A stretch of 49,272 bases of DNA from Rotaria socialis. Its lineage: Eukaryota. Location: NCBI GenBank assembly GCA_905331485.1, contig CAJNYT010000219.1, positions 1-49,272 on the forward strand, read 5' to 3'. A program made the position numbers and the translations under genes. Below, in pieces: positions 7,576-49,272 of this stretch (within the stretch, counting starts at the first letter, position 1; each line of letters opens with the position of its first letter). The notes beneath the pieces were generated by a model that had not been told where the DNA came from, searched no databases, and saw only the letters and a program-made list of their open reading frames with translations.

Positions 7576-9954
7576 TTAGACTTCTTTAAATAATATTCCG
7601 TAGGGTCGAACATTCTGTGAATTGTTACACGTCCATATATCTCGATTGTGCTTTGCGATCGAACTATTATTAATTCTCACTTGAAACATAACTTGCAATT
7701 GTCGGCCATTGTATGGTGTTGGCCTAGAGTAGTGTCTACTCCCGGAATATGATGGATTAGGCGATAAATATATGCCTCGACCATGAGCAGAACCATTAAC
7801 AATAGGTATCCCATTACTACCTCCAGCAATTAAACCATTACGTAGTATAGCTAAAGCATTGGCAGTTGCAGTACCATGATAAGCTACAGGCCATGCATCT
7901 TTGCCCTCCGCTAGCCATTCAGCATTTTCATATTTTCCAAGTACTTTAATAGCCTTTCTATACCATCCGCATGGCCTTGTATAAGGTTCTGGTCCACGTT
8001 GAAAAGTTCGACCGGCATCATTTCTTGTTGTAAAATCGTAGTCGTAAGTGCTATCAAGAAACTCTTCATCTAGCATAACACGATTTACAAAACGATTAGT
8101 CCGAGCAGTAGCACTTGAAAAATGTGGAATATAAGCTGCAATTGAACTCTGATTGTATTGATAAAATCGAACGTTTTGATCATCTTCCCATCGATTTATA
8201 TCATTATCAATATTCCAATAACTTAATCGAATACTTTCAGGACATGTATATTCAGATGGTTCATTTATTATTAATAGTGGACAATGCTCTTTTTTATCAC
8301 TAAATTGAATATGATCAGCTTTGAAATGAATAACTGATATAATTCGATTATAATTTTCTTCTAATGTTCCTTTGTCCGGTACATAATCTTCGTTTTTCCA
8401 TACAGTATTTGGTAAGGATTTACTTACTACGGACTTTGATTCTGATTCTTGTGCTATTTTATATTCCATTATTCGAGAAGAATAATACATAACAGCATTA
8501 CTTTCATACATATCAGCCTTTTCACACTGAGGACACTTTATTTTTACAGTAGAATTAGACTCTTGTTTAATGGTTGATGTTAGTTTATCATTTAATCTTT
8601 TACAGCACTGGTAACAAAATAAAGCTGAACAATTTGGATTAAGACATAATCTATGTTTTTCAGGTATTAAACGACAATATAAACATTCTAAAGCCGAAGT
8701 TCCTTCCATTTCAAATTTATCAATAATTTTTGATTTACGGTATTCTGATAATCGAACTTTCTTGTAACATGTTGGACAATGATGTTCATGATTTGTATTA
8801 TCACAACTGGATTCAATACAAATGCGACAAAATACTTGTGTACAATATGGGCATTCTAAATTATCATCATTAAGTTGTGATAAACAATTTAGACATTCAG
8901 GTTTATCTATGAAAATTAATGAAGATGTTGACGGTTTATTAATTAAAGTAGCTGAATTAAAATCCGTTTCAACTGCTTGTGCTAAATTAGTTTCATTGGA
9001 TGGCGTTTCTTTTTTTGAGGATATAATTGGATTTGACTGAGTAGGATTTATTTTCTTAATGTTAACTTTATCAATCTGATTATTCAATTCATTGATTTTT
9101 GTTGATATCTTCATCCAATTGCATGATGATTTTAAATTATCGATCAAGAAATCGTTGCTCCCAATAGAAATTGTTGTTGATTTTTTATTTCCAATTGTTT
9201 GTTTTGCTTGCTGGGCGGATTTAATCACATTGATGGTCTCAACTGGAAACATTAAAATAATTGTATTATTATCCAATCGAGCTTCACATTCATAATTTAT
9301 TATAGCAAATTTATCCTTATTGATGTCTGAAACTTTTTGACAGCGATCACTAGGTTGGACTGCATTAATCTGAGATGACCCTATATCTCCGTCGACGATA
9401 GTATCAGGCTGAATATTAAATTTTAATTGAACAATAGAACCAGGATTAATTCCTAAATCCAACATTGGAATATATGCATTTTTATTTAATGAGTAATATT
9501 TTCCATTAGCCATAATTCCTTGCGCATAGCGACCGTCGCAACATCTTACTTTACAAAATTGAGATAACAATAAACGATCATAGGGTAATGCTATTAATAA
9601 TGGATAATCATATATTTGGACTGATTTGAACATGGCCGTTTTTATTAATTTAATATGTGACACGTCAGCATTAGCTGAAATGAATATTTTTTCTAGTAAT
9701 TCAAAGTAATTTTCTACATTCATTGTAATTTTTTCTGATAAATGATTAGTTTGAATCATTTTACCAATATGTTGACATAATTTATTATATCTGAGTGGAT
9801 GAATTAATTGGGACGAAGGAATAATTCCCATTTTAATTTCAGTTATTGGCCAATATCTGAGATCTTGATCTTTACTAACAGCGCTAATAGGTTTATTATA
9901 ATCAGAATTTTCACTTTCTAATTGATTAGTGTTATCGGCAATTAAATGAAACAT
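7576..9954 (-). CDS. 792-aa protein: two Cys/His zinc-finger modules (RING/IBR-like) plus a C-terminal ADP-ribosyltransferase-fold (H-Y type, PARP/NEURL4-like) domain
   Basis: Single uninterrupted ORF starting at ATG.
- Zinc modules: CLNCLSQLNDDNLECPYCTQVFCRICIESSCDNTNHEHHCPTCYKK and CLYCRLIPEKHRLCLNPNCSALFCYQCCKRL...KCPQCEK.
- C-terminus: RPCGWYRKAIKVLGKYENAEWLAEGKDAWPVAYHGTATANALAILRNGL...AHGRGIYLSPNPSYS...VRPYGILFKEV. This shows the His (xYHGT) and Tyr (GxGIYxS) signatures of the PARP-type ART fold. Confidence 0.65.
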   Translation of the reverse strand: MFHLIADNTNQLESENSDYNKPISAVSKDQDLRYWPITEIKMGIIPSSQLIHPLRYNKLCQHIGKMIQTNHLSEKITMNVENYFELLEKIFISANADVSHIKLIKTAMFKSVQIYDYPLLIALPYDRLLLSQFCKVRCCDGRYAQGIMANGKYYSLNKNAYIPMLDLGINPGSIVQLKFNIQPDTIVDGDIGSSQINAVQPSDRCQKVSDINKDKFAIINYECEARLDNNTIILMFPVETINVIKSAQQAKQTIGNKKSTTISIGSNDFLIDNLKSSCNWMKISTKINELNNQIDKVNIKKINPTQSNPIISSKKETPSNETNLAQAVETDFNSATLINKPSTSSLIFIDKPECLNCLSQLNDDNLECPYCTQVFCRICIESSCDNTNHEHHCPTCYKKVRLSEYRKSKIIDKFEMEGTSALECLYCRLIPEKHRLCLNPNCSALFCYQCCKRLNDKLTSTIKQESNSTVKIKCPQCEKADMYESNAVMYYSSRIMEYKIAQESESKSVVSKSLPNTVWKNEDYVPDKGTLEENYNRIISVIHFKADHIQFSDKKEHCPLLIINEPSEYTCPESIRLSYWNIDNDINRWEDDQNVRFYQYNQSSIAAYIPHFSSATARTNRFVNRVMLDEEFLDSTYDYDFTTRNDAGRTFQRGPEPYTRPCGWYRKAIKVLGKYENAEWLAEGKDAWPVAYHGTATANALAILRNGLIAGGSNGIPIVNGSAHGRGIYLSPNPSYSGSRHYSRPTPYNGRQLQVMFQVRINNSSIAKHNRDIWTCNNSQNVRPYGILFKEV

Positions 9955-10016
9955 AATTAATTGTAAAACTGAAATGGACTCATTTTCTGATAATAGTGTT
10001 TTTGATTCTTTACGTT

Positions 10017-10688
10017 CTAATAATAATAATCGGATTTATGAATAATTAATAATCGAAATGGTGGTAATGCAACACGATTTAATCGAAAAGAAAGTTTTAA
10101 AATTTCTTCGTATAATTCTTTTGCTTCATTTTCTAATGAAATCATTATATTTTCATATACTAATACATAATCAGCAAGATCAACAGGTATTGTGTCAATG
10201 TTATCACTATATAGTATAGTGGATAATATCAGATGAGCTGCACCAATAGTCATAGATTTCGGCAACCAAATCGATTTTAATTGACTATTTTTTGTTGTAG
10301 AAGATAATGAATTTAATGATTTAACTGAATAAATTTCATATTTAACCATACCAGCATCAGTGGTCTGATTTATATTATTAACAGTAATAAAATTACTAAA
10401 AGTTGTATAGAGATCATTGACAAATTCGTGTAAGATTGGATTGCCTTTTAAGTCTAAGACTTTTGTTTGTGCTTGTTGTTGAGATTTCTCAATTGTTTCT
10501 TTAACTATTTTACCGTGATCTTTTGATGAAAATGAATTAAAACAATACTTTTCACTTTCAAATAATGCTTTTAATATATTGACAGTTGTTGGGGTGTCAT
10601 AGATAATATTACTTATTGTGTTGTTTCGGTTATTCGCATTAAGATCATTAGTATCGCTTTGATTGGGAACAGTGGAGGAATTACCCAT
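10017..10688 (-). CDS. 223-aa protein of unknown function with an N-terminal myristoylation-type motif (MGNSSTV)
   Basis: ATG-initiated ORF on the same strand as the zinc-finger-ART gene, ending 62 nt upstream of it. No domain recognised by eye. Gly2 plus Thr6 fits the MGxxxS/T pattern. Confidence 0.45.
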   Translation of the reverse strand: MGNSSTVPNQSDTNDLNANNRNNTISNIIYDTPTTVNILKALFESEKYCFNSFSSKDHGKIVKETIEKSQQQAQTKVLDLKGNPILHEFVNDLYTTFSNFITVNNINQTTDAGMVKYEIYSVKSLNSLSSTTKNSQLKSIWLPKSMTIGAAHLILSTILYSDNIDTIPVDLADYVLVYENIMISLENEAKELYEEILKLSFRLNRVALPPFRLLIIHKSDYYY

Positions 10689-11449
10689 TTTTTATTCGTT
10701 CGTAGGCAGAAAATCTGAAATTGTAGTCAAACTATAAAAGTAATACTAACATCGGATTAACTATAAAAATTTTGTGCTAATGATTCGAACAGAAACTCTT
10801 CTAATCGTCGTCCTTCTTCTATCTTAAGAAATTAAAAGACAAAAAGACCGCTTGATAACAGATAAAGAAGAATATTAAAATAAATAGAAGGATGTTTTCA
10901 TATTATCTAATCATTGCTGCTAGATCCTAATAGATATATTTGGCATTTGAATAGATAATTTTAACTTGTGTTCAATATCATATAACACTGTTGTATGGAA
11001 AAAATTTTTATTGCCAACGAAAAATCGTCAACCCACTTGTTTGAACAAGAATTTAAATATTTCAATTTTTTATTGTAGTGTTTTTTATGGGTCACCCTGT
11101 ATATAAACGAAACGAAAAGAAAAATGTAATATGAATCATTACTAACAACAAGAGACATGAAGAGAAACTCAAGGACACGCATATATAGTGAAATCTATAA
11201 TAAAGAAAGTACCAATAGTCTCCTCTGAACACAGTACAGATCATAACTATCTAATATAGATGAATAAATTATGAATATATCAGTGGCTGGCATGTGTAAG
11301 ATTTGCATAACTTGATGCAACCTAATTCACATATTCTTCAGTTCTATCTGAGTCGATTGAATGTAAAAGCTTTTCAGAATAAAGTAAAAATCATGCCAAC
11401 TTTAAAAAATTATTTCCTATGTAATGTTAACTGGCTGTCTCTTGTTTCA

Positions 11450-11508
11450 GCGGATGTGGATGTGTGTGCGCTATCTTTAACCCAGCCTACGCCCACACCC
11501 ACACACCC
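11450..11508. repeat. Inverted telomeric-repeat junction
   Basis: G-arm gcggatgtggatgtgtgtgcg (11450-11470), spacer, C-arm cgcccacacccacacaccc (11490-11508). Confidence 0.8.
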
Positions 11509-11542
11509 TTATGATACTTGACGTCTCTTATTGATCCTTGTA

Positions 11543-12551
11543 TTAGAGATCTGAGCTACGTAAACTCCAGAGTTTAATTATCCATTTGTTTGCGATTTCA
11601 TCAAAGTGGCACGATGTTACCTTAGCAGGAAAACCATCGAAAATCAAAAGTTCTTGTTCATCCGGATAATTTGAATATGGGGACATATCCAGAGAGCCGG
11701 TATCTTTTTCGAGGTCAATGACAAAAAGAAAGTTGCTGCCAAAGAATTCGGCCACGTTCGGATTAAGAGTAGTTGAGGTAAACGCCGGTAATTGGATTTT
11801 TCTTTCAGAGACAACGCATAGTCGAAATTGTTCAATTTGTTCGTTAGTCATCGTTGCTCCTCGATATACTATCATATTAGTGGGAGTAAAATTCATAGCT
11901 GAATTCAATAGTACAGCAAATGGGCCGTTTGGCCATCCATTCACCTTCTCGTTGCTTCCCCACCTTTTTCGCTTCGATTATAAATCCTTCCGCTGCCTTT
12001 TCTATCCACATCTCAAGTACTGACTGACAAGTGATACCTTTCTCCCAACCAACGCCGTAATGAGAACAAGCTTCTTGAACAAAATCAGGAGTTGTTGGTT
12101 CAATTTGCCAGTTTATGAAACTGTTCGAAGGCAAAACTGAATCTTCCAAGAAACGTTCCGCTCTTACTCGTTTCTCTCGTTCATCCTTGTTACGATCAAC
12201 TATACGTTTCACTGGCCGTTGTTTCTTTTCGTCATTATTAGAGATTTGCATAGAACGTGCAAAAACGATATGATAGTCGTCGAGAAGAGCTTCTGGTAAG
12301 CCTTGTTGGAATGCTTCTTCGATGATTTCAGTTTCTACATCGGTGTATTTTCGCCATTCAGCAGGTTCTGCAAAACAGAAAGGAAGCGCATTAGATTGCC
12401 ACAGCCACTCTATATACTGCTTGGCAATCAATGCAGTAGTAGTCATATACGCAACGACCAAACGGTAGCAGTAAAGATTAGATGTGATAGTAAAAAGAAA
12501 GAAAATGAAAGATATATTTCGTTTCATTATTGACTCTTTTTGTTGTTCCAT
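11543..12551 (-). CDS. WWE domain plus R-S-E (arginine-type) mono-ADP-ribosyltransferase, 2 exons (12551-11945, 11898-11543)
   Basis: - N-terminal part: YIEWLWQSNALPFCFAEPAEWRKYTDVETEIIEEAFQQG...YHIVFARSMQISNNDEKKQRPVKR matches the WWE pattern (W-W...W-x-Y...E-x-A...Q...R-x-V-K-R).
- C-terminal part: VYRG (Arg), FTSTT (STS) and PDEQELL (ExE) ART motifs.
- The two ORFs overlap in different frames. A 46-nt GTGAAT...TTCAG intron (11899-11944) joins them in phase, giving 963 nt = 320 aa. Confidence 0.8.
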
Positions 12552-16377: not shown

Positions 16378-17900
16378 ATGCAGCTGGTCGATTTACTTGA
16401 TGAGTTAATTTTAATTATCATGTACAAAGTGAAACCTAAAGTGTTATTGCTTTGTTCTACTATCACTATTGATAATAATCGTTTAGCAAAACTTGCACTT
16501 GATATGTATCATTCAATTGATTTAACTTTTAAGTATTTTCAATCACCATATCAATTTATTATTCCACGTTTTTACACACATTTTATGCCTTGTATCATTA
16601 ATAATATTCAACTTACACATTAGGTAAACTATGATTAACTATCGCTTTAGTTCATTTTCTACTTATAAAATAAGATAAATTCTTATTTTTTCAGAATTAA
16701 AAAAAAAGAACTCTACTTTAAATATAGAAGATTCAAGTGGCTTTTTAGGAACATTTAAGCAGAAAAGATGTGAGACTTTTTTAAGTATTCATTGCGATAA
16801 AAACTTTATGATCAAAATTGTGTTCCTTAAAAATCTTATATTTCGATCATAATACATTTAAAAAGAAGGAACCATTAGATGATATGCTAGTCTACTAGCC
16901 TCCTATCTCTGACCAGAATATGAGCTTTAAACATTATAATAACCTGGTTGATTCTTCTTCTCCTTAGATATTCCTAAAAAACAACTCGAATCTTCTGTAT
17001 TTCGAGTGGAAGTCGACAAAAACCTTTTCCAAAAAAATGGTTGAATACCGATGATTTTACCCTTCTGATAAAATCTATACTTAGGAAAACATTGATATTT
17101 GTATATATTATTAGGCAATAACCTTTACTGTGTTTCGCGGTGTTTTACTCTCTTCTCAAATATACCTCAATTTTCTGTACGTACTGGATAAGAGCAATAC
17201 TGCTCGCACTTGATCTAAATTCTTTTGTTCACTATCTGTGTCTTCTATTGTATCTTTCGAATTGGATGATGATTGTATTTTAAAAAATATATTTTAAAAT
17301 GGCGATGATTTAATTTTTCCTGAATCAATCCATCTGACTCTTATTCGAATAATATTATTTGAATTCGAACGTTGCATTTTTTTACTTAATCAATTGGGCT
17401 CATAATTATGTTCATTCGTTGTAAGTGTGTGGTGTTTGTTTCTGCATCAGATGTTGGTATTTTTTCTAAAATTAAATCAGTAAGCAATATTTAGTAATTG
17501 CAAATCTCATTTAATTAATTCATAAAGATTTCATGTCCTAATTTGAAACGATTGGCAATGAAAATTTGTTTCTTCCTGTTTTACAATGTTGATCAAATTT
17601 CGAATATTTAATATTATTATTAGCTATTGAATTCAAAAGAAATACACCCAAACGTTTTATTGATGGATTTGATTTGGATAAACACATTATTTTATGCATG
17701 CCTCATTTATGTCAATTTCATATTCGTTCAATATTACCAAATGCTGCTCATGTAGAAATCGAGAATGAACTTGAGCGACAAGAAAAAATAGAAACGACAA
17801 CAAATAATCTTGAATTTACTCATTTAACTACTCTGATTTTATTTGATATTCATTTGGATTATGCTGAACAATTACTTTGTCGAAGCCATTTTCCTTCTCT
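16378..17900 (+). pseudogene. Decayed F-box-like / leucine-rich gene
   Basis: - ORF 16378-16623 begins LVDLLDELILIIMYKVKPKVLLLCSTITIDNNRLAKLALD (F-box-like LxxLPDEILxxIF...N-x-R-L pattern).
- ORF 17674-17916 ends ...LEFTHLTTLILFDIHLDYAEQLLCRSHFPSLI.
- The 1 kb between them has leucine-rich stretches in several frames, interrupted by stops. Confidence 0.35.
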
Positions 17901-18720
17901 TATTGTGCAGCGGTAGGCTTTTCATTTAAGGAAATGTGCTCCAACCGCATTAGACCATCCATACGTATAGGCTTCTGTTTTTGTTTACTTTCAATACAAA
18001 CGCCATTAGCTACAGTACGAAATAGCTGCGTAATATCTTTATTTGGCTTTGCTATGTGTTTCAATAGATGTTTGGCGAATAATCCATTTCTATCAGTAGT
18101 ATCACCATCAGAGGCAATTTGATTTGGGCTACATGCAAAGACGACGTAGCTGCCATCCGGTACTTCCATTGCATGTAAACTAATACCTTCGAGCTTCGCT
18201 AAAACAACGATACGTGATACATCTTATACGGCACAATTTTGACTAGTTTTTGCTACCAACCGTTTCTTTGCCTTTTGTTTTTTGGATAGTGTACTCGACA
18301 ACAATCTAGTATAAATACCGTCACAAAGGATGGATTTTTTTGTCTTAATTGATGAAGAGTGCGTTCGGCACAAGTACAATAATCCTCAACATCTTCATCA
18401 GATTTAATTAAATCATCATCTACGTGAGCCAAATATGTTCTGCCATTAACGTGATAGCCATGGCCAGAAAAGTAGAACATAACCAAATCGCCGTCAACGA
18501 TTGTCTCAGCAAAAGCGGATATTGTAGAGGCCATTTGTGACTTTGTAAGATCACGTGCCGTTTTTACCTGAAATTTAATATTTCGTAGCACGTTACTAAG
18601 ATCATTAGCATCATTGATACAATGACGAAGTCTATCTTCAGATTGAATATAATTCTGGTTTCCGATAACTAATGCTATTTTACGGCGAGGCCTTGAGGCA
18701 GTAGAATTCAGAGTAGCCAT
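17900..18720 (-). CDS. Caspase-fold (peptidase C14) protease, paracaspase/metacaspase-like, 2 exons (18720-18261, 18198-17900)
   Basis: - KIALVIGNQNY...NDANDLSNVLRNIKFQVKTARDLTKSQM...LVMFYFSGHGY (catalytic His).
- FILDCCR (catalytic Cys).
- Second exon: SYVVFACSPNQIASDG...NGLFAKHLLKHI.
- A 62-nt GTTGGT...TTTTAG intron (18199-18260) joins the ORFs in phase, giving 759 nt = 252 aa.
- The layout resembles the MALT1 paracaspase core (ALLIGNxxY...YYAGHGY...FLLDMCR). Confidence 0.8.
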
Positions 18721-18885
18721 GAGAATTATTTTTTTCTAAAAGAAAATAACTCAGTTAAATTACACGGCTGATAAGTATCGGACACTCAGGATACTTTAAT
18801 AAATAGACTGCAGATAGATTTTTGATGTATTTTAACTTTGTATCTGTGTGATACACTTACATATTGTATTGTTCTCTTAGAACGG

Positions 18886-19505
18886 TTCTCAATAGCATAT
18901 GAGCGCATGCGGTAAGTCTTTTTCCTGAAAAACTCTTCCACTCATTCTCTGCAAATGGCACTTGTACTTTTCCGCGGCACAATCAAACACATCATTTAGT
19001 ACGAGCAATGTCGTAATCAGTTTTCCTTCCCGTTTCGCCATATTTCAGTCCATGAGCATCGCGAAAAATAAAGTACGCTGAAGGATGGACTAGTAGACGT
19101 TTTGATTGTAAACGATCAGTATTATTCATGTATAGAAAACGATTTTAGAGAATATTAATTATGCTGAATATTTACTTATAAACAATCAAAAGCACAACGA
19201 AACCTTGTCAAACCGTTTTCTATACATGAATAATACTGATCGTTTACAATCAAAACGTATAATAGTCCATCCTTCAGCGTACTCTATTTTTCGCGATGCT
19301 CATCGACTGAAATATGGTGAAACTGGAAGGAAAACGGATTCCGACATTGAAACATGTAAATGGAATAATATGTTTTTGAACGCTGCTCGTGCTAAATGAT
19401 GCGTTTGATTGTGCCACTGAAAACTACAAGCGTCAATTGCAGAGAATGAGTCGAAGAGTTTTTCAGAAAAAAGGCTTACCATATACGCTCATATGCTGCT
19501 GAGAA
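18886..19505. repeat. Long imperfect palindrome, arms 18886-19142 and 19213-19505, spacer about 70 bp
   Basis: The reverse complement of the right arm matches the left arm almost throughout (ttctcagcagcatatgagcg.. / ttctcaatagcatatgagcg.. ; ..gattgtaaacgatcagtattattcatgtatagaaaacg in both). The right arm carries an extra segment of about 35 bp. Confidence 0.9.
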
Positions 19506-20126
19506 GCATGCAAAATACAAGGAGGCCTATTATTTTTGTCTGTCCATTATAAGAGTGATTTATAAGCAGCTACGTAAAGAACATGATATATTTTTTCACC
19601 TTAGGCAAATATTAGTTTTGGCTCATGACGCGAACTTTCGAAATGTTTTATTAATATTTCACAATACGTATTTTTGATGACGTCATTACTCTGAATAACA
19701 GATGAGATATGTTTTAATCACAGTCAAGTTATTAGAATTTTCAACGTTGTTTTAACAAAAAATACGTCTAAGTGATATAGGTAAAGTTAGCACCAAATTC
19801 GGTTATTTTTTGTCCGGATTAGCTCAAGAACGTGCGTTCGATGTAAAATTAAATTCTACGTCGAATTGCATTATTTTCAATAGTGGTCATCGAGCAAGAA
19901 AAGGGGCTCAGGATGAAATACTAGAGTTCGGGTGCACGATACCATAATCTTGATAGGCATTATTGAAGTTGGTCAAAAGATTTCAATCGCCACATAGGGT
20001 TGGACCGTTTGTTAGCTATAATATGTATAGAATGAAAGAAAGATATAAGGAATGAAAGAGGGATATATAGAGAGTGAAAGAGACAAGCAGTGTCACTGAT
20101 GTTATGTGACAGAACGAAGAAAAATA

Positions 20127-20198
20127 TGACCTTCATGGAGATCGAACCCATACCTTCTGCTATCCAGGCAGATGTCCTACCAGTTAGACTAGAAGAAC
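20127..20198 (-). tRNA. tRNA-like sequence (probable tRNA pseudogene or tRNA-derived element), nominal anticodon GGA
   Basis: Minus strand: GTTCTTC TA GTCT AACTGGTA GGAC A TCTGC CTGGATA GCAGA AGGT ATGGG TTCGATC TCCAT GAAGGTC A. The cloverleaf is drawable and has A-box-like and B-box-like (GGTTCGATC) motifs. Anomalies: a U2-U71 mismatch, G53-U61 in place of G-C, a pyrimidine at position 37, and a Ser anticodon without the long variable arm. Confidence 0.3.
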
Positions 20199-25832: not shown

Positions 25833-27707
25833 ATGACTTCATTAACGAAAAATCTTGAAGGTCTGACTATTGTATGGCTTGATGTTGATCGTATTCATCA
25901 AAACACCGATGATTATTTTGATACGAAAAATCGTCTACGACAATGCAATAATTATATAGAAATATATCATGATCCAAATGAGTGTATTCATGGTATAATA
26001 GCGAATGGATACGTTTTTCTAATCGTTTCTGGTTCAATCTGCGAAACATTTATTCCGCTGATTTTTGAAATCAAACAGATCGTATTTATTTACGTTCTAT
26101 ATTCGGATAATCAATTGACGGACACCTGTGAACTAAAAACTATTTCAAAACTTCATGGAATATTCTCAAGTAAAAACCAACTTATTGAAAAACTGAAACA
26201 AGACGTCAAATCATATTTGAAGAGTTTGCCACTAACATGTATCGTCAATGAAAAGTCAATTCGTGCTTTAAACAAAGAATATTCTACGTTTATGTGGACT
26301 CAATTGCTTATGGACGTTTTAATTCAAATACCTCAAACAGATCGTGCAAAAATGATGATGTTAGAAGATTGCCGATTGCATTATGCTGATAATAAAGCTC
26401 AATTAGATGATATTAACGAGTTTCAAGAAAAATATGAACCAGACTTTGCAGTTTGGTGGTATACACGTGAGAGTTTCGCATATAAACAATTAAACCAAGC
26501 ACTACGTACACAAGATATTGACATTATTTTTAAATATCAATTTTTTATAAGAGATCTTTATGTACTATTGAAAGAATTATATGAAGAATCTATGCCATCC
26601 TTAGAAGAAATATCGATTGTCTACCGTGGCCAACATATCAATTGTGATGAATTGGAAAAAATAAAAAATAATGTGAACGGTCTTATTTCAATGAATTCAT
26701 TTTTATCAACAACTCGAAACAAGAATCGAGCTTTAATATCCGCCGGTGATGGTTCAAATAGGCCCTCGCTTGAATCCATCTTATTTGAAATTACGATTAA
26801 TAAAAATGTTGCTGCTAAAACTAAACCATTCGCTGACATTACAAAGATGAGTCAATTTGGCAAGGCAGAAGAAGAAATACTATTATCGATTGGAAGTATA
26901 TTCAAGATTCAGTCAGTTGAACAGTTAGCTGAAAATGCTCATGTTTGGGACGTTAAGCTAATATTAAATGAATCAGTGGTGATTAATGAAATAGACATGT
27001 TATTCAATTATTTCAAAATGAATTCAACTACAAGTATATCGAATGTCGGTACATTAGGTTTACTATTAGGAGAGATGGGAGAATATGAAAAAGCGGAAAA
27101 ATATTATCAAATGATGCTTGATGAATTATCAACAGATCATTGCGGAGTTCCAATAATATTAAATAATATGGGAGTATTATACAATGATATGGGTAATGAT
27201 GAAAAAGCATTAGAATATTATAAGAAATCATACGAAAGTTATAAAATGCAAAACGTATCAGAAAATGATCTTCTCTTAGCGAATTTATATCATAATATGG
27301 GTTCATTGTATTATGAAAATGAGTATAATAAAACAGCATTGAAATATTTTAAAAAAGCTTTTAAAATTTGTAATAATAATTCTACGCTACCCAGTCTTTT
27401 ATTATCTGCAACATTATATACAGACGTGAGTGGAATATATCAAGATAATGAAGATTCTGTTAATGCATTGGATCAGTTGCAACACACATTTGAAATCCAA
27501 AAAAGAATTCTACCATCAACTCATTTCAGAATCGCTGCAACATACAATAACATAGGAAGTGTTTATCTTTGTAAAGGAGATTATGCAAAAGCATTAGAAA
27601 ACTTTGAAATAGCCTTGAATATTGGATTAAAATCTTTGCCAGCCGATCATGAACATATTCAAACATATCGTGAAAATATAAAACATGCTAAAGAAAGAAT
27701 AAAGTAA
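25833..27707 (+). CDS. 624-aa R-S-E ADP-ribosyltransferase domain protein with C-terminal TPR repeats
   Basis: Single ATG..TAA ORF.
- ART motifs: VYRGQ (Arg), FLSTT (STS), GKAEEEILL (ExE).
- C-terminal third: repeated TPR-type units (NNMGVLYNDMGNDEKALEYYKKS, YHNMGSLYYENEYNKTALKYFKKA, YNNIGSVYLCKGDYAKALENFEIA).
- An AATAAA at 27698-27703 overlaps the end of the ORF. Confidence 0.85.
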   Translation: MTSLTKNLEGLTIVWLDVDRIHQNTDDYFDTKNRLRQCNNYIEIYHDPNECIHGIIANGYVFLIVSGSICETFIPLIFEIKQIVFIYVLYSDNQLTDTCELKTISKLHGIFSSKNQLIEKLKQDVKSYLKSLPLTCIVNEKSIRALNKEYSTFMWTQLLMDVLIQIPQTDRAKMMMLEDCRLHYADNKAQLDDINEFQEKYEPDFAVWWYTRESFAYKQLNQALRTQDIDIIFKYQFFIRDLYVLLKELYEESMPSLEEISIVYRGQHINCDELEKIKNNVNGLISMNSFLSTTRNKNRALISAGDGSNRPSLESILFEITINKNVAAKTKPFADITKMSQFGKAEEEILLSIGSIFKIQSVEQLAENAHVWDVKLILNESVVINEIDMLFNYFKMNSTTSISNVGTLGLLLGEMGEYEKAEKYYQMMLDELSTDHCGVPIILNNMGVLYNDMGNDEKALEYYKKSYESYKMQNVSENDLLLANLYHNMGSLYYENEYNKTALKYFKKAFKICNNNSTLPSLLLSATLYTDVSGIYQDNEDSVNALDQLQHTFEIQKRILPSTHFRIAATYNNIGSVYLCKGDYAKALENFEIALNIGLKSLPADHEHIQTYRENIKHAKERIK

Positions 27708-27722
27708 TCGAATATTAATAAT

Positions 27723-27778
27723 GGGGTGTGTGGTGTGGGTGTGGATATGATCCAGACTGGAAAATTCACCCACACCCA
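27723..27778. repeat. Inverted telomeric-repeat junction starting 15 nt after the ART-TPR stop codon
   Basis: G-arm ggggtgtgtggtgtgggtgtgga, 21-bp spacer, C-arm cacccacaccca. Confidence 0.9.
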
Positions 27779-48315: not shown

Positions 48316-49272
48316 TTACAACCATTCTGGAAAGCGTGCTTGGGTCTCTAAATATAGTTTATCGAGTCGTTCAATTTCTGTCAGTTGTGACTTGCTGGGT
48401 TTAATTAACAACACCTTGTAATCAAAATATCGCAAAATAACCAAATCAGTTAAGCGTTTTACCCGCGATAAGGGTACATAGACTGCAGCAATATCATCGG
48501 TTTCATTTGGCAGTTTTAAATCAATCACAACTTTATTCAATGTTTGACCTTGACTCTTGTGTGTTGTAATGCAATAAGCTGGTACAAGTGGTAATGCGCG
48601 CCGTTTAATTGATAACAGTGTTTTTCTATTTGATTTTGGTTTCTTATCTTTTGGAAGCATATCGCCTATATCGACTCGAAATGTTTGTTCCATTACCGGT
48701 ATTGGAATCAGTTTTGGCTGAAGTTGTTCTAAATTGCATTCGATCGTTGATTTGCTAATTTCCACCAAGGCGTACAGAGGTCGATGGACATATCGTGCAT
48801 TCTTGGAAAATTCTTCTGAAATAATATCAGTTGACACGGAATCTTCCTGGTAGACAAGCTGCCGAAAGATTCCGTTCACACCGTTGATAAGACCCAATTC
48901 AATTGCAATATTTTGCGTTAAAATTACAGGCATTCCAGGAACAAGAGGTAATAGACCTGGTAGATGCTCTGTTTTACTATCAGATAATTCTAATCATTTT
49001 TTAATAAGTGCTCGATCTTCAATTGGTTTGCCTTTGCAGGTGTCTTGGGCAATGCATACTATAGGTGTCTGTCCCACTTGTTGTGCTTTGTGACTAAGTG
49101 CCTTGTGATTTAATTGTGTTCGTATTTCGTTACGAAATACAAGAATCGGAGCCTAAAATGATGAAGATAGTGAATTGTCTAAATCTAGAAAAACAAATTT
49201 ACTTTATTCCATGGTGAATCACTTAACAAGGGTACGGAAGATTGCCCCACTATTCGTGTTAACAATAATTCG
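48316..49272 (-). pseudogene. Pif1-family (Helitron-type) helicase C-terminal region, interrupted by an in-frame TGA; runs off the window edge
   Basis: - Minus strand: ..APILVFRNEIRTQLNHKAL...KGKPIEDRALIKK*LELSDSKTEHLPGLLPLVPGMPVILTQNIAIELGLINGVNG...LPLVPAYCITTHKSQGQTLNKVVIDL...AVYVPLSRVKRLTDLVIL (Pif1 motifs TxHKSQG and YVAxSR).
- The in-frame TGA is at 48994-48996.
- A candidate 75-nt intron is at 49153-49227. Confidence 0.7.

Follow-up and report, generated by a model that had tools for sequence, protein, structure and literature searches.

A probably old and inert palindrome beside a caspase-like gene in the bdelloid rotifer Rotaria socialis

We analyzed a stretch of 49,272 nucleotides from Rotaria socialis (contig CAJNYT010000219.1 of assembly GCA_905331485.1), which we will call the window. 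On its minus strand, the window encodes a caspase-like protein of 252 amino acids in two exons (Table 1). Residue for residue, the spliced product matches an entry already annotated in R. socialis (P0086, "Caspase family p20 domain-containing protein"). Upstream of the gene is a 620-bp inverted repeat, at 18886-19505, whose nearer end lies 165 nt from the ATG at 18720. We will refer to this repeat as the palindrome, to its arms as proximal or distal relative to the gene, and to the sequence on its far side as the distal flank.

Table 1. Features of the caspase-like gene and its upstream region, by position in the window. K is the substitution rate between R. socialis and R. magnacalcarata.
Feature	Position	Strand	Remarks
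Exon 2 of the caspase-like gene	17900..18198	-	Includes the TAA stop (17902-17900); spliced translation of 252 aa
GT..AG intron, 62 nt	18199..18260	-	Removal restores the reading frame; kept in R. magnacalcarata, K = 0.085
Exon 1 of the caspase-like gene	18261..18720	-	ATG (18720); codons for His87 (18462-18460), Cys141 (18300-18298), D37 and D139
Conserved proximal promoter / 5' leader region, 165 bp	18721..18885	-	K = 0.063, versus ~0.11 in the palindrome
Palindrome, proximal arm, 260 nt	18886..19145		Has lost 36 nt that the distal arm and both R. magnacalcarata arms retain
Palindrome, spacer (loop), 64 nt	19146..19209		
Palindrome, distal arm, 296 nt	19210..19505		
Distal-arm segment without a proximal counterpart, 36 nt	19350..19385		Present in both R. 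magnacalcarata arms and in the L015 arm
Distal upstream flank common to R. socialis and R. magnacalcarata	19506..19988		Shared block ends at 19988

The sequence-only reading of this locus described a stand-alone protease with a caspase fold and an intact catalytic dyad, and Pfam, AlphaFold2, and Foldseek bear this out. The only Pfam domain in the protein is Peptidase_C14 (PF00656; residues 13-231, E = 8.5e-39). Its score of 134 bits, against a gathering cut-off of 21.4, places the protein in the Peptidase C14 family (caspase fold, clan CD). That reading was also right that there are no death, immunoglobulin, or other partner domains: PF00656 alone was detected, and 252 amino acids leave no room for more. 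The AlphaFold2 model has a caspase-like alpha/beta fold (pLDDT of 89.5 and pTM of 0.89), and the nearest solved structure is MALT1 (TM of 0.76-0.82 at 26-28% identity, versus ~0.65 for caspases). The SGHG motif of the protein contains H87, and the LDCCR motif contains cysteines 140 and 141, of which C141 aligns with the cysteine in the LLDMCR motif of MALT1. Besides sharing the His/Cys dyad with MALT1, the protein has acidic residues (D37 and D139) that align with MALT1's LVD and LLDMCR motifs. Across 48 homologs, H87 is invariant and C141 is at least 90% conserved.

MALT1 is the best solved relative by sequence as well (E = 2.5e-17). The best metacaspase in PDB matches residues 13-125 only, with E = 3e-3, so we rejected the idea that the protein is a metacaspase. 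Paracaspases are divided into type 1, in which an N-terminal death domain and immunoglobulin domains flank the protease domain, and type 2, which consists of the paracaspase domain alone (PMC5978004). Without death or immunoglobulin domains, the protein cannot be a type 1 (MALT1-like) paracaspase; with a single PF00656 domain, it resembles type 2 in its architecture. However, bacterial caspase-family proteins scored far higher than MALT1 in a single-sequence search (101-113 bits versus 65 bits), and there were no eukaryotes other than rotifers among the best 120-150 matches, so descent from animal paracaspases is not demonstrated.

The closest sequences from outside the rotifers are bacterial caspase homologs, or orthocaspases, such as caspase family proteins from Microcystis aeruginosa. 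These are ~30-36% identical to the rotifer protein across the whole domain. Unlike them, the rotifer gene is part of an animal genome, is interrupted by a spliceosomal intron, and is without the partner domains seen in bacteria. Nowell et al. (2024) reported a bdelloid-specific expansion of genes with the Peptidase_C14 (caspase) domain, and many members of the expansion are candidates for horizontal acquisition and are highly divergent from known caspases (PMC11258130). We found dozens of paralogs of the 252-aa protein in Rotaria and Adineta; the named matches beyond these two genera were bacterial or archaeal. Because the named paralogs come from Rotaria and Adineta, and because the nearest outgroups are bacterial-like, the protein fits the published description of the bdelloid C14 family (PMC11258130), and it is annotated within that expansion. 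Some of the paralogs consist of tandem domains or carry a fused NACHT, NHL, ART, or kinase domain, while the protein from the window is a minimal, single-domain form. By homology, there is nothing unusual about the gene within the bdelloid-specific group of bacterial-like C14 proteases; it is already annotated and comes from an already published family, and nothing in its sequence sets it apart from that family.

To compare the locus with its relatives, we used other assemblies of R. socialis and R. magnacalcarata as well as more distant lineages. The R. magnacalcarata loci are collinear with positions 19988 to 17904 of the window, at 89% identity, with the palindrome in the same position; outside of this block, there is no synteny between the two species. 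The homology stops just upstream of the stop codon of the caspase-like gene. Given dN = 0.043 and dS = 0.157 between the two species, the gene is, by this measure, under purifying selection.

The 165 bp between the gene and the palindrome can be aligned across five lineages, including those without the palindrome. It contains a GTAAGT at 18860-18855 and a pyrimidine tract followed by AG (18737-18736, 15 nt before the ATG), and the pyrimidine tract with YAG is present in all five lineages. Judging from these motifs, an intron in the 5' UTR or an acceptor for trans-splicing may be located here. If GTAAGT..YAG is a 5'-UTR intron, then transcription would start around the proximal arm's outer end. 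It is equally possible that the conserved acceptor is a site for trans-splicing of a spliced leader, in which case the sequence upstream of it would be a discarded outron. The sequence-only reading had also raised the possibility that the palindrome supplies or disrupts the promoter. This does not fit: the conserved region falls outside of the palindrome and is thus neither provided nor broken up by it. The caspase-like gene seems to rely on these 165 bp rather than on the palindrome. On the other side of the palindrome, the distal flank contains a strongly conserved block of 55 nt (19686-19740).

The palindrome itself is real. Aligning it to its own reverse complement with BLAST gave E = 1.8e-156, far above chance, and the predicted RNA fold has a free energy of -398.8 kcal/mol, versus -141.5 +/- 7.4 for shuffled sequences (z = -34.7). 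Its arms measure 260 and 296 nt and its spacer 64 nt, and 165 bp separate it from the ATG. But "near-perfect" is too strong a description for the copy in the window, as only 231 of 255 aligned positions (90.6%) are Watson-Crick complementary and 36 nt are unpaired. Complementarity is 94% in the inner 140 nt and 85% in the outer 131 nt. Besides the 36-nt indel, the mismatches include 8 that would form G.U pairs in the sense RNA, 6 that would form G.U pairs in the antisense RNA, and 10 transversions, so there is no bias towards G.U on either strand. A complementarity of 90.6% is what we would expect for two arms that drift independently at ~5% each. There are no subrepeats within the arms. Symmetry beyond the annotated arms was significant only in lineage L015, where 0 of 300 shuffles were as good; in the window and in locus L001, respectively, 98 and 260 of 300 shuffles were as good. 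The intact arm of L001 measures 304 nt (L001 3213-3516), and the whole palindrome 656 bp.

We found the palindrome, with the same diverged arms, in five other assemblies of R. socialis. It is also present in 11 assemblies of R. magnacalcarata, and part of it is present in an independent metagenome contig. In the seven complete copies from R. magnacalcarata, the arms are identical over positions 1-264, and mismatches are confined to the inner 40 nt beside the loop. Between the species, each arm is 88-90% identical to its counterpart. Arm-to-arm identity thus exceeds between-species identity in R. magnacalcarata (100% over 264 nt), whereas the arms in R. socialis (90.6%) do not show this excess. 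Also, 13 sites changed in both arms between the two species, while we estimate that independent parallel changes would yield ~0.2 such sites. With L015 as the outgroup, 7 of the changes in both arms can be assigned to the R. magnacalcarata branch and 5 to the R. socialis branch. From the identity of the R. magnacalcarata arms and from the sites that changed in both arms, we infer gene conversion between the arms.

The orientation of the spacer was uniform across the four other R. socialis assemblies that we checked. In R. magnacalcarata, four assemblies have one orientation and six have the other, and each orientation occurs with both alleles of the gene. Crossing-over between the arms would invert the spacer in this way, but the orientation in the R. 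magnacalcarata assemblies may also be an arbitrary choice of the assembler: a short read is shorter than the 264 identical nt of an arm, and the assemblies of 2021 were built from Illumina data (PMC7943196).

For the two arms, comparison of R. socialis with R. magnacalcarata gives K values of 0.109 and 0.116, and for the loop, 0.156. By contrast or likeness, K is 0.096-0.137 in the distal flank, and the gene has dS = 0.157; the intron and the proximal region are lower (Table 1). This suggests that the arms evolve at the neutral rate. The mutation spectrum of the arms is mixed, with no sign of deamination or RIP. We considered whether the arms might encode proteins, but the open reading frames in the window (50-64 aa) are interrupted in R. 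magnacalcarata. Nor did any of 5.8 billion proteins match a six-frame translation of the palindrome at E <= 10. Similarly, Rfam found no hammerhead or other ribozyme of the kind that is typical of Penelope-like elements or retrozymes in the palindrome.

In other lineages, the palindrome is reduced or missing. The relative L003 has only fragments of it, and the lineage represented by L004-L013 has none: the distal flank runs straight into the proximal region, without even one equivalent of an arm at the junction. Both retain the caspase-like gene, and the proximal region is retained as well, which suggests that the palindrome is dispensable for the gene. The order of branching of the four lineages has bootstrap support of 51-57%, so the palindrome-free locus may be either primitive (with insertion in the other lineages) or derived (by loss). 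We observed three deletions within the palindrome: the 36 nt from the proximal arm in R. socialis; ~30 nt from the proximal arm's outer end in both R. socialis and R. magnacalcarata, which L015 retains; and most of the interior in L003. These several independent deletions support instability of the palindrome at the DNA level, where the sequence-only reading had suggested a cruciform or a fragile site.

Our preferred explanation, to which we give a probability of roughly 60%, is that we are dealing with an old long inverted repeat at a single locus, between the distal flank and the conserved 165 bp, that is unstable and functionally inert. Its sequence would drift neutrally, and the arms would recombine with each other for as long as they are similar enough. 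In R. magnacalcarata, gene conversion would keep the arms identical, and the spacer may flip in the process. In R. socialis, homogenization would have stopped, and ~24 independent substitutions and the 36-nt deletion would have accumulated since. In other lineages, most or all of the palindrome would have been deleted. As to its origin, it is roughly equally likely that a fold-back element (non-coding, with long terminal inverted repeats) was inserted as a unit or that the palindrome is a product of repair or replication. The perfect arms of R. magnacalcarata are a point against inertness, as they could reflect selection for pairing in that species. But the roles that had been proposed for the palindrome, whether as a source of siRNAs or in regulation, are unsupported: the arms evolve as if neutral, pairing is lost without a bias towards G.U, and relatives with little or none of the palindrome keep the gene.

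The palindromes of mammalian sex chromosomes (PMC8600007, PMC8327919, PMC8981503) offer a parallel. There too, identity between arms far exceeds identity between species, as in R. magnacalcarata; substitutions are fixed in both arms; and the spacer diverges faster and may be invertible. However, the mammalian arms are over 10 kb, while those described here are ~0.3 kb and free of genes. Also, the rotifer palindrome lies in intergenic DNA of autosomal type in an asexual animal, and its homogenization has ceased in R. socialis.

Another view of the palindrome's origin, which partly overlaps with the inert reading, is that it is one copy of a dispersed family of non-autonomous transposons of the fold-back type, with long terminal inverted repeats. 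The palindrome does resemble fold-back or MITE-like transposons in having long inverted arms and a short non-coding spacer, and in being absent as a unit from one lineage. The locus in L004-L013 looks like an empty site; since it has no remaining equivalent of an arm, duplication of local sequence is disfavored. Furthermore, the arms match nothing else nearby, and by our own reading, a weak candidate for a target-site duplication (GTTTAT-like) flanks the junctions of the palindrome. The region upstream of the gene does accept transposon insertions: L011 carries a clear MITE there, and R. magnacalcarata has an insertion of 235 bp only a few bp away from that position. We found no relation of the palindrome to either of them. 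Around the palindrome, we saw no target-site duplication that was convincing, in contrast to the perfect one of 8 bp at the neighboring MITE. The proximal end of the palindrome is eroded. The lack of subrepeats in the arms also argues against a fold-back element. And we did not find dispersed copies: there is no second copy in the 49-kb window or in the Rotaria loci that we fetched, outside of the palindrome site, nor in metagenome contigs from JGI (queried with a conserved 20-mer) or in predicted proteins, although these negative results weigh little. (The 20-mer GCTCATSGACTGAAATATGG had four metagenome matches, but these extended over just 23-24 nt and were on unrelated contigs, so we attribute them to chance.) Another difference from such transposons is that the palindrome has kept its single site over several speciation events. 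We consider membership in such a family to be a minority possibility.

Could the palindrome be a cis-regulatory module of the caspase-like gene, such as an enhancer, an insulator, or a structure-dependent promoter element, or could it contain the start site? It is directly upstream of the conserved proximal region, and a 5'-UTR intron, if real, would place the start site around the edge of the palindrome, as noted above. But the acceptor might equally be for trans-splicing, with the upstream sequence as an outron. Within the palindrome, R. socialis, R. magnacalcarata, and L015 share an identical core of 21 nt (TGCTCATGGACTGAAATATGG), part of which survives in the remnant in L003. We estimate that ~0.1 such runs would arise by chance, which we view as within chance expectation, so the core is only a hint of a functional element. 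Given that the palindrome accumulates substitutions at the same rate as the flanking DNA, and that the lineages that lack it retain an intact caspase-like gene, a cis-regulatory role is unlikely.

A hairpin-RNA gene is distinctly unlikely. Under this hypothesis, the palindrome would be transcribed into a double-stranded stem of ~300 bp that Dicer would cut into endo-siRNAs, which would silence some target or, in cis, the adjacent caspase-like gene. The predicted fold is very stable and would be almost perfect in R. magnacalcarata, several lineages have kept the palindrome at its site, and bdelloids do have Dicer as well as expanded families of Argonaute and RNA-dependent RNA polymerase (PMC7943196). 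Like the hpRNA loci of the type known from Drosophila, it is a long inverted repeat that is predicted to be able to form a hairpin of ~300 bp. But a hairpin-RNA gene would not be expected to have arms that evolve at the neutral rate, or to lose pairing as seen in R. socialis, where the mismatches do not favor G.U on either strand and there is a bulge of 36 nt, or to be largely deleted in L003 and absent from L004-L013. No target is visible either, as the arms have no match elsewhere in the window or among known proteins. Matches to microRNA families in Rfam were far under the gathering scores (95 bits versus 230 for MIR7533 and 38 bits versus 90 for MIR161), and we consider these to be generic matches to a long hairpin. 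In contrast to the Drosophila-type loci, the palindrome shows no homology to a target (in the window or among predicted proteins), no constraint on pairing, and no conservation beyond close relatives.

A more specific version holds that this is a genuine hairpin-RNA locus that has been perfected by conversion in R. magnacalcarata and is degenerating in R. socialis, and that its siRNAs regulate the adjacent, bacterial-like caspase gene or a distant target. This is very unlikely, but if true, it would be the first regulator of the hpRNA type to be described in a bdelloid rotifer, and it would be tied to a horizontally acquired gene family of the immune type.

Finally, that the palindrome is an artefact of assembly or of whole-genome amplification (an inverted chimera) is practically out of the question: amplification and some long-read libraries do generate inverted duplications (PMC13265396), and short-read contigs do break at the palindrome (L025-L027 begin inside it and L022 has a gap of Ns), but the same structure is found in independent assemblies of both species and, in part, in the metagenome contig, and a chimera would not have produced the 24 substitutions and the 36-nt indel by which its arms in the window differ.

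The direct importance of the locus is small: the gene was already annotated, the expansion of its family was already published, and the palindrome behaves like neutral DNA. If the palindrome were transcribed into siRNAs, it would be of greater interest, although our findings give no pointer to that. What the inert reading offers is a single palindrome of 0.6 kb that has met two fates in sister species of asexual rotifers, with identity kept by conversion in one and with drift and deletion in the other. Because the locus is small enough for PCR, it could be used to measure intrachromosomal recombination and the instability of palindromes in animals that lack conventional sex.

Reading both strands of the region, we found a minus-strand caspase-like gene with a single intron beside the palindrome (see table). 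The spliced gene encodes 252 amino acids, and Peptidase_C14 is its sole Pfam domain (residues 13-231, E 8.5e-39). The catalytic residues are H87 (in SGHG) and C141 (in LDCCR). In an alignment of 48 sequences, H87 does not vary, and conservation of C141 is 90% or higher. Its sequence is the same as that of P0086, which is annotated in the bdelloid rotifer R. socialis as a "Caspase family p20 domain-containing protein", and the locus is 99.7-99.96% identical in five other R. socialis assemblies. The protein encoded by another R. socialis allele (P0089) has SAHG, not SGHG, beside the catalytic histidine; conservation of G86 across the family is 90% or higher.

Table. Positions of the palindrome, the caspase-like gene and other features in the window
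Feature	Position	Strand	Basis or description
Proximal arm of palindrome	18886-19145		inverted-repeat comparison
Spacer of palindrome	19146-19209		inverted-repeat comparison
Distal arm of palindrome	19210-19505		inverted-repeat comparison
Exon 1 of caspase-like gene	ATG at 18720, 460 nt	minus	spliced translation
Intron of caspase-like gene	18260-18199, 62 nt	minus	GT..AG, between both exons
Exon 2 of caspase-like gene	TAA end at 17900, 299 nt	minus	spliced translation
tRNA gene	20127-20198, 72 nt	minus	Rfam 49 bits; ARAGORN tRNA-Ser, anticodon GGA
Short adenylosuccinate-synthetase-like ORF, intronless, 360 aa	4280-5362	minus	Pfam PF00709
Protein with C-terminal TPR repeats	25833-27707		Pfam

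The AlphaFold2 model of the protein is confident (pLDDT 89.5), and its best solved neighbor is the MALT1 paracaspase (TM 0.76-0.82, versus ~0.65 for caspases). MALT1 is also matched by sequence (E 2.5e-17), while metacaspases reach only 3e-3. The sequence-only reading had described a stand-alone paracaspase-like protease, which is fair for the fold and the architecture. Type 2 paracaspases have a published definition by architecture (PMC5978004), which the rotifer protein fits; this does not imply descent from animal paracaspases. A full HMMER scan, run against 1.8 billion representative proteins, found 32,515 relatives. The best named matches are paralogues from Rotaria and Adineta, some of which have tandem domains or fusions to NACHT, NHL, ART, or kinase domains. 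Next come caspase-family proteins of bacteria such as Microcystis, Methylococcales, and Bradyrhizobium, and no eukaryotes other than rotifers are among the best 120-150 matches. A published study describes a bdelloid-specific expansion of C14 genes: two Adineta species have 101 and 69 of them, and many were flagged as candidates for horizontal acquisition (PMC11258130). The caspase-like gene belongs to this expansion, and the protease is a known, already annotated family member.

Between R. socialis and its sister species R. magnacalcarata, the gene has dN = 0.043 and dN/dS = 0.27, so the protein is under constraint. The sequence-only reading had listed inactivating changes in orthologues among the findings that would refute it, and this is partly borne out, in 3 of 11 R. 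magnacalcarata assemblies (loci L001, L032, and L033). All three have a 2-nt deletion in exon 2 (window 18054-18055) that truncates the protein: the frame is lost after ...GLFAKHLLKH and a stop follows a few codons on. The annotated 280-aa models leave out 18 residues, which hides the deletion. Exon 2 is intact in the other eight assemblies. The truncations suggest that the gene is dispensable in some clones.

R. socialis and R. magnacalcarata have only ~2.1 kb in common here (19988-17904), and everything beyond differs. The 3' flank of R. magnacalcarata is also found in three related lineages from metagenomes (L014, L004-L013, and L003). This flank is the ancestral one, so R. socialis was rearranged where homology ends (17904), immediately before the current stop codon, and an exon that encoded a C-terminal tail of low complexity (~46 amino acids) was lost. 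Within R. socialis, the match to the window stops 307 nt past the stop codon (~17596) in one assembly (L020) and continues for 2 kb in three others (L028-L030), so haplotypes or isolates differ in structure just 3' of the gene.

The tRNA gene lies just outside the common block. Its length is short for a serine tRNA, so this could be a pseudo-tRNA or a tRNA-like sequence. Elsewhere in the window, the best solved relatives of the adenylosuccinate-synthetase-like ORF are 363-aa entries (6fm1/6fko/6tnh, E about 3e-42), which we take to be PurZ of phage phiVC8. Archaeal PurA (2d7u, 5k7x) comes next, together with 7odx (E 2.7e-36), whose label is PurZ of phage S-2L. Its P-loop is GSCGKG. The presence of a PurZ or archaeal-type enzyme in a rotifer genome looks like horizontal acquisition. 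Four stretches (7576-12551, 25833-29555, 34809-38054, and 48316-48933) are rich in conflict-type genes, which are probably foreign; by Pfam, they include PARP-domain proteins, an ADP-ribosyltransferase with WWE, the protein with C-terminal TPR repeats, an EryCIII-like glycosyltransferase, and a PARP/VIT/VWA gene. The ORF at the right end had no match in Pfam; by eye, it resembles part of a PIF1/Helitron-like helicase.

The palindrome, 165 nt from the ATG, is far beyond chance (BLAST E 1.8e-156; folding z-score -34.7). The inverted repeat that had been noticed upstream of the protease is thus real, but "near-perfect" goes too far: complementarity holds at 231 of 255 aligned positions, and a 36-nt stretch of the distal arm (19350-19385) has nothing to pair with. 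This 90.6% complementarity is about what we would expect for two arms that drift independently. Of the mismatches in R. socialis, 8 would be G.U pairs in sense RNA and 6 in antisense RNA, and 10 are transversions. We see no sign that an RNA hairpin is being preserved on either strand.

The R. magnacalcarata contigs are collinear with 19988-17904 (89% identity) and have a palindrome at the same place, with 304-nt arms, 99% complementarity, and a 48-nt loop. Seven complete copies, each from a different assembly, have no differences at arm positions 1-264. In a more distant relative, whose gene is 82% identical, a metagenome contig (L015) has the proximal arm and the loop in the same position. 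Its arm continues ~30 nt further outward, and this extension matches the reverse complement of the distal flank of R. magnacalcarata (0/300 shuffles), so the ancestral arms were longer. In L003 only remnants are left: a 45-nt core of the arm, the outer end in inverted orientation, and the distal flank. The palindrome is absent from the L004-L013 lineage, where the distal flank directly adjoins the proximal region, and from the homologue in R. sordida. (About 480 bp upstream of that homologue, at L002 9467-9518, is a perfect 21-nt hairpin of (GGGTGT)n / (ACACCC)n, which look like telomeric repeats.) Three lineages have independent deletions within the palindrome, in keeping with the instability that long inverted repeats are known for (PMC7999016).

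In a four-arm alignment, both arms differ between R. socialis and R. magnacalcarata at 13 sites, and we estimate that independent parallel hits would yield ~0.2. With L015 as the outgroup, 7 of these changes are placed on the branch to R. magnacalcarata and 5 on that to R. socialis. Changes in a single arm number 14 + 13 in R. socialis and only 1 + 1 in R. magnacalcarata. The divergence (K) of the arms (0.109 and 0.116) and the loop (0.156) is similar to that of the distal flank (0.096-0.137), the intron (0.085), and synonymous sites in the gene (dS = 0.157), so the palindrome drifts like neutral DNA. The spacer is recorded in both orientations in R. magnacalcarata assemblies (4 vs 6), each with both gene alleles. 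This fits flip-flop recombination, but the assembler may have chosen the orientation arbitrarily, since the identical arms are too long for short reads to span and the 2021 assemblies were built from Illumina data (PMC7943196).

The 165 bp between the palindrome and the ATG (18721-18885) can be aligned across five lineages, with or without the palindrome, and its low divergence (K = 0.063) marks it as constrained. A conserved pyrimidine tract with an AG 15 nt before the ATG, and GTAAGT at 18860-18855, suggest a 5'-UTR intron or a trans-splice acceptor.

Farther out, ~1 kb upstream of the ATG, a 55-nt block (19686-19740) is almost unchanged in R. magnacalcarata and still has 80% identity in the L007/L011 lineage, which lacks the palindrome; its conservation is well above that of its surroundings. 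It has no match in Rfam. Two independent insertions lie a few bp apart at one upstream site (~19684-19690): in the L004-L013 lineage, a 583-bp MITE (L011 584-1166) whose terminal repeats are 32 nt long (CAAGGGGGAAAAAGCAGG...) and whose 8-bp duplication (GTAAAACG) is perfect, and in R. magnacalcarata, a 235-bp insertion (L001 2780-3014) between TGTTATTC(G/A)G repeats.

Unlike that MITE, a few hundred bp away, the palindrome has no clear target-site duplication at its ends. We found no second copy of the arm in the window or, away from the palindrome site, in the other fetched loci. The most conserved 20-mer of the arm had just 4 chance hits in JGI metagenomes, and a six-frame query against 5.8 billion predicted proteins found no copy; all of these negatives, which cover the window, the fetched loci, one 20-mer, and predicted proteins, are weak. 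Because both arms are cleanly absent from one lineage, we argue that the palindrome came or went as a unit and is not duplicated local sequence. It could be either a fold-back element or a palindrome generated by repair.

The evolutionary evidence lends no support to the proposed siRNA and promoter roles. The best explanation for the palindrome is that it is a relic at a single locus, inert and unstable; on this reading, its arms are homogenized by recombination in R. magnacalcarata and are decaying in R. socialis.
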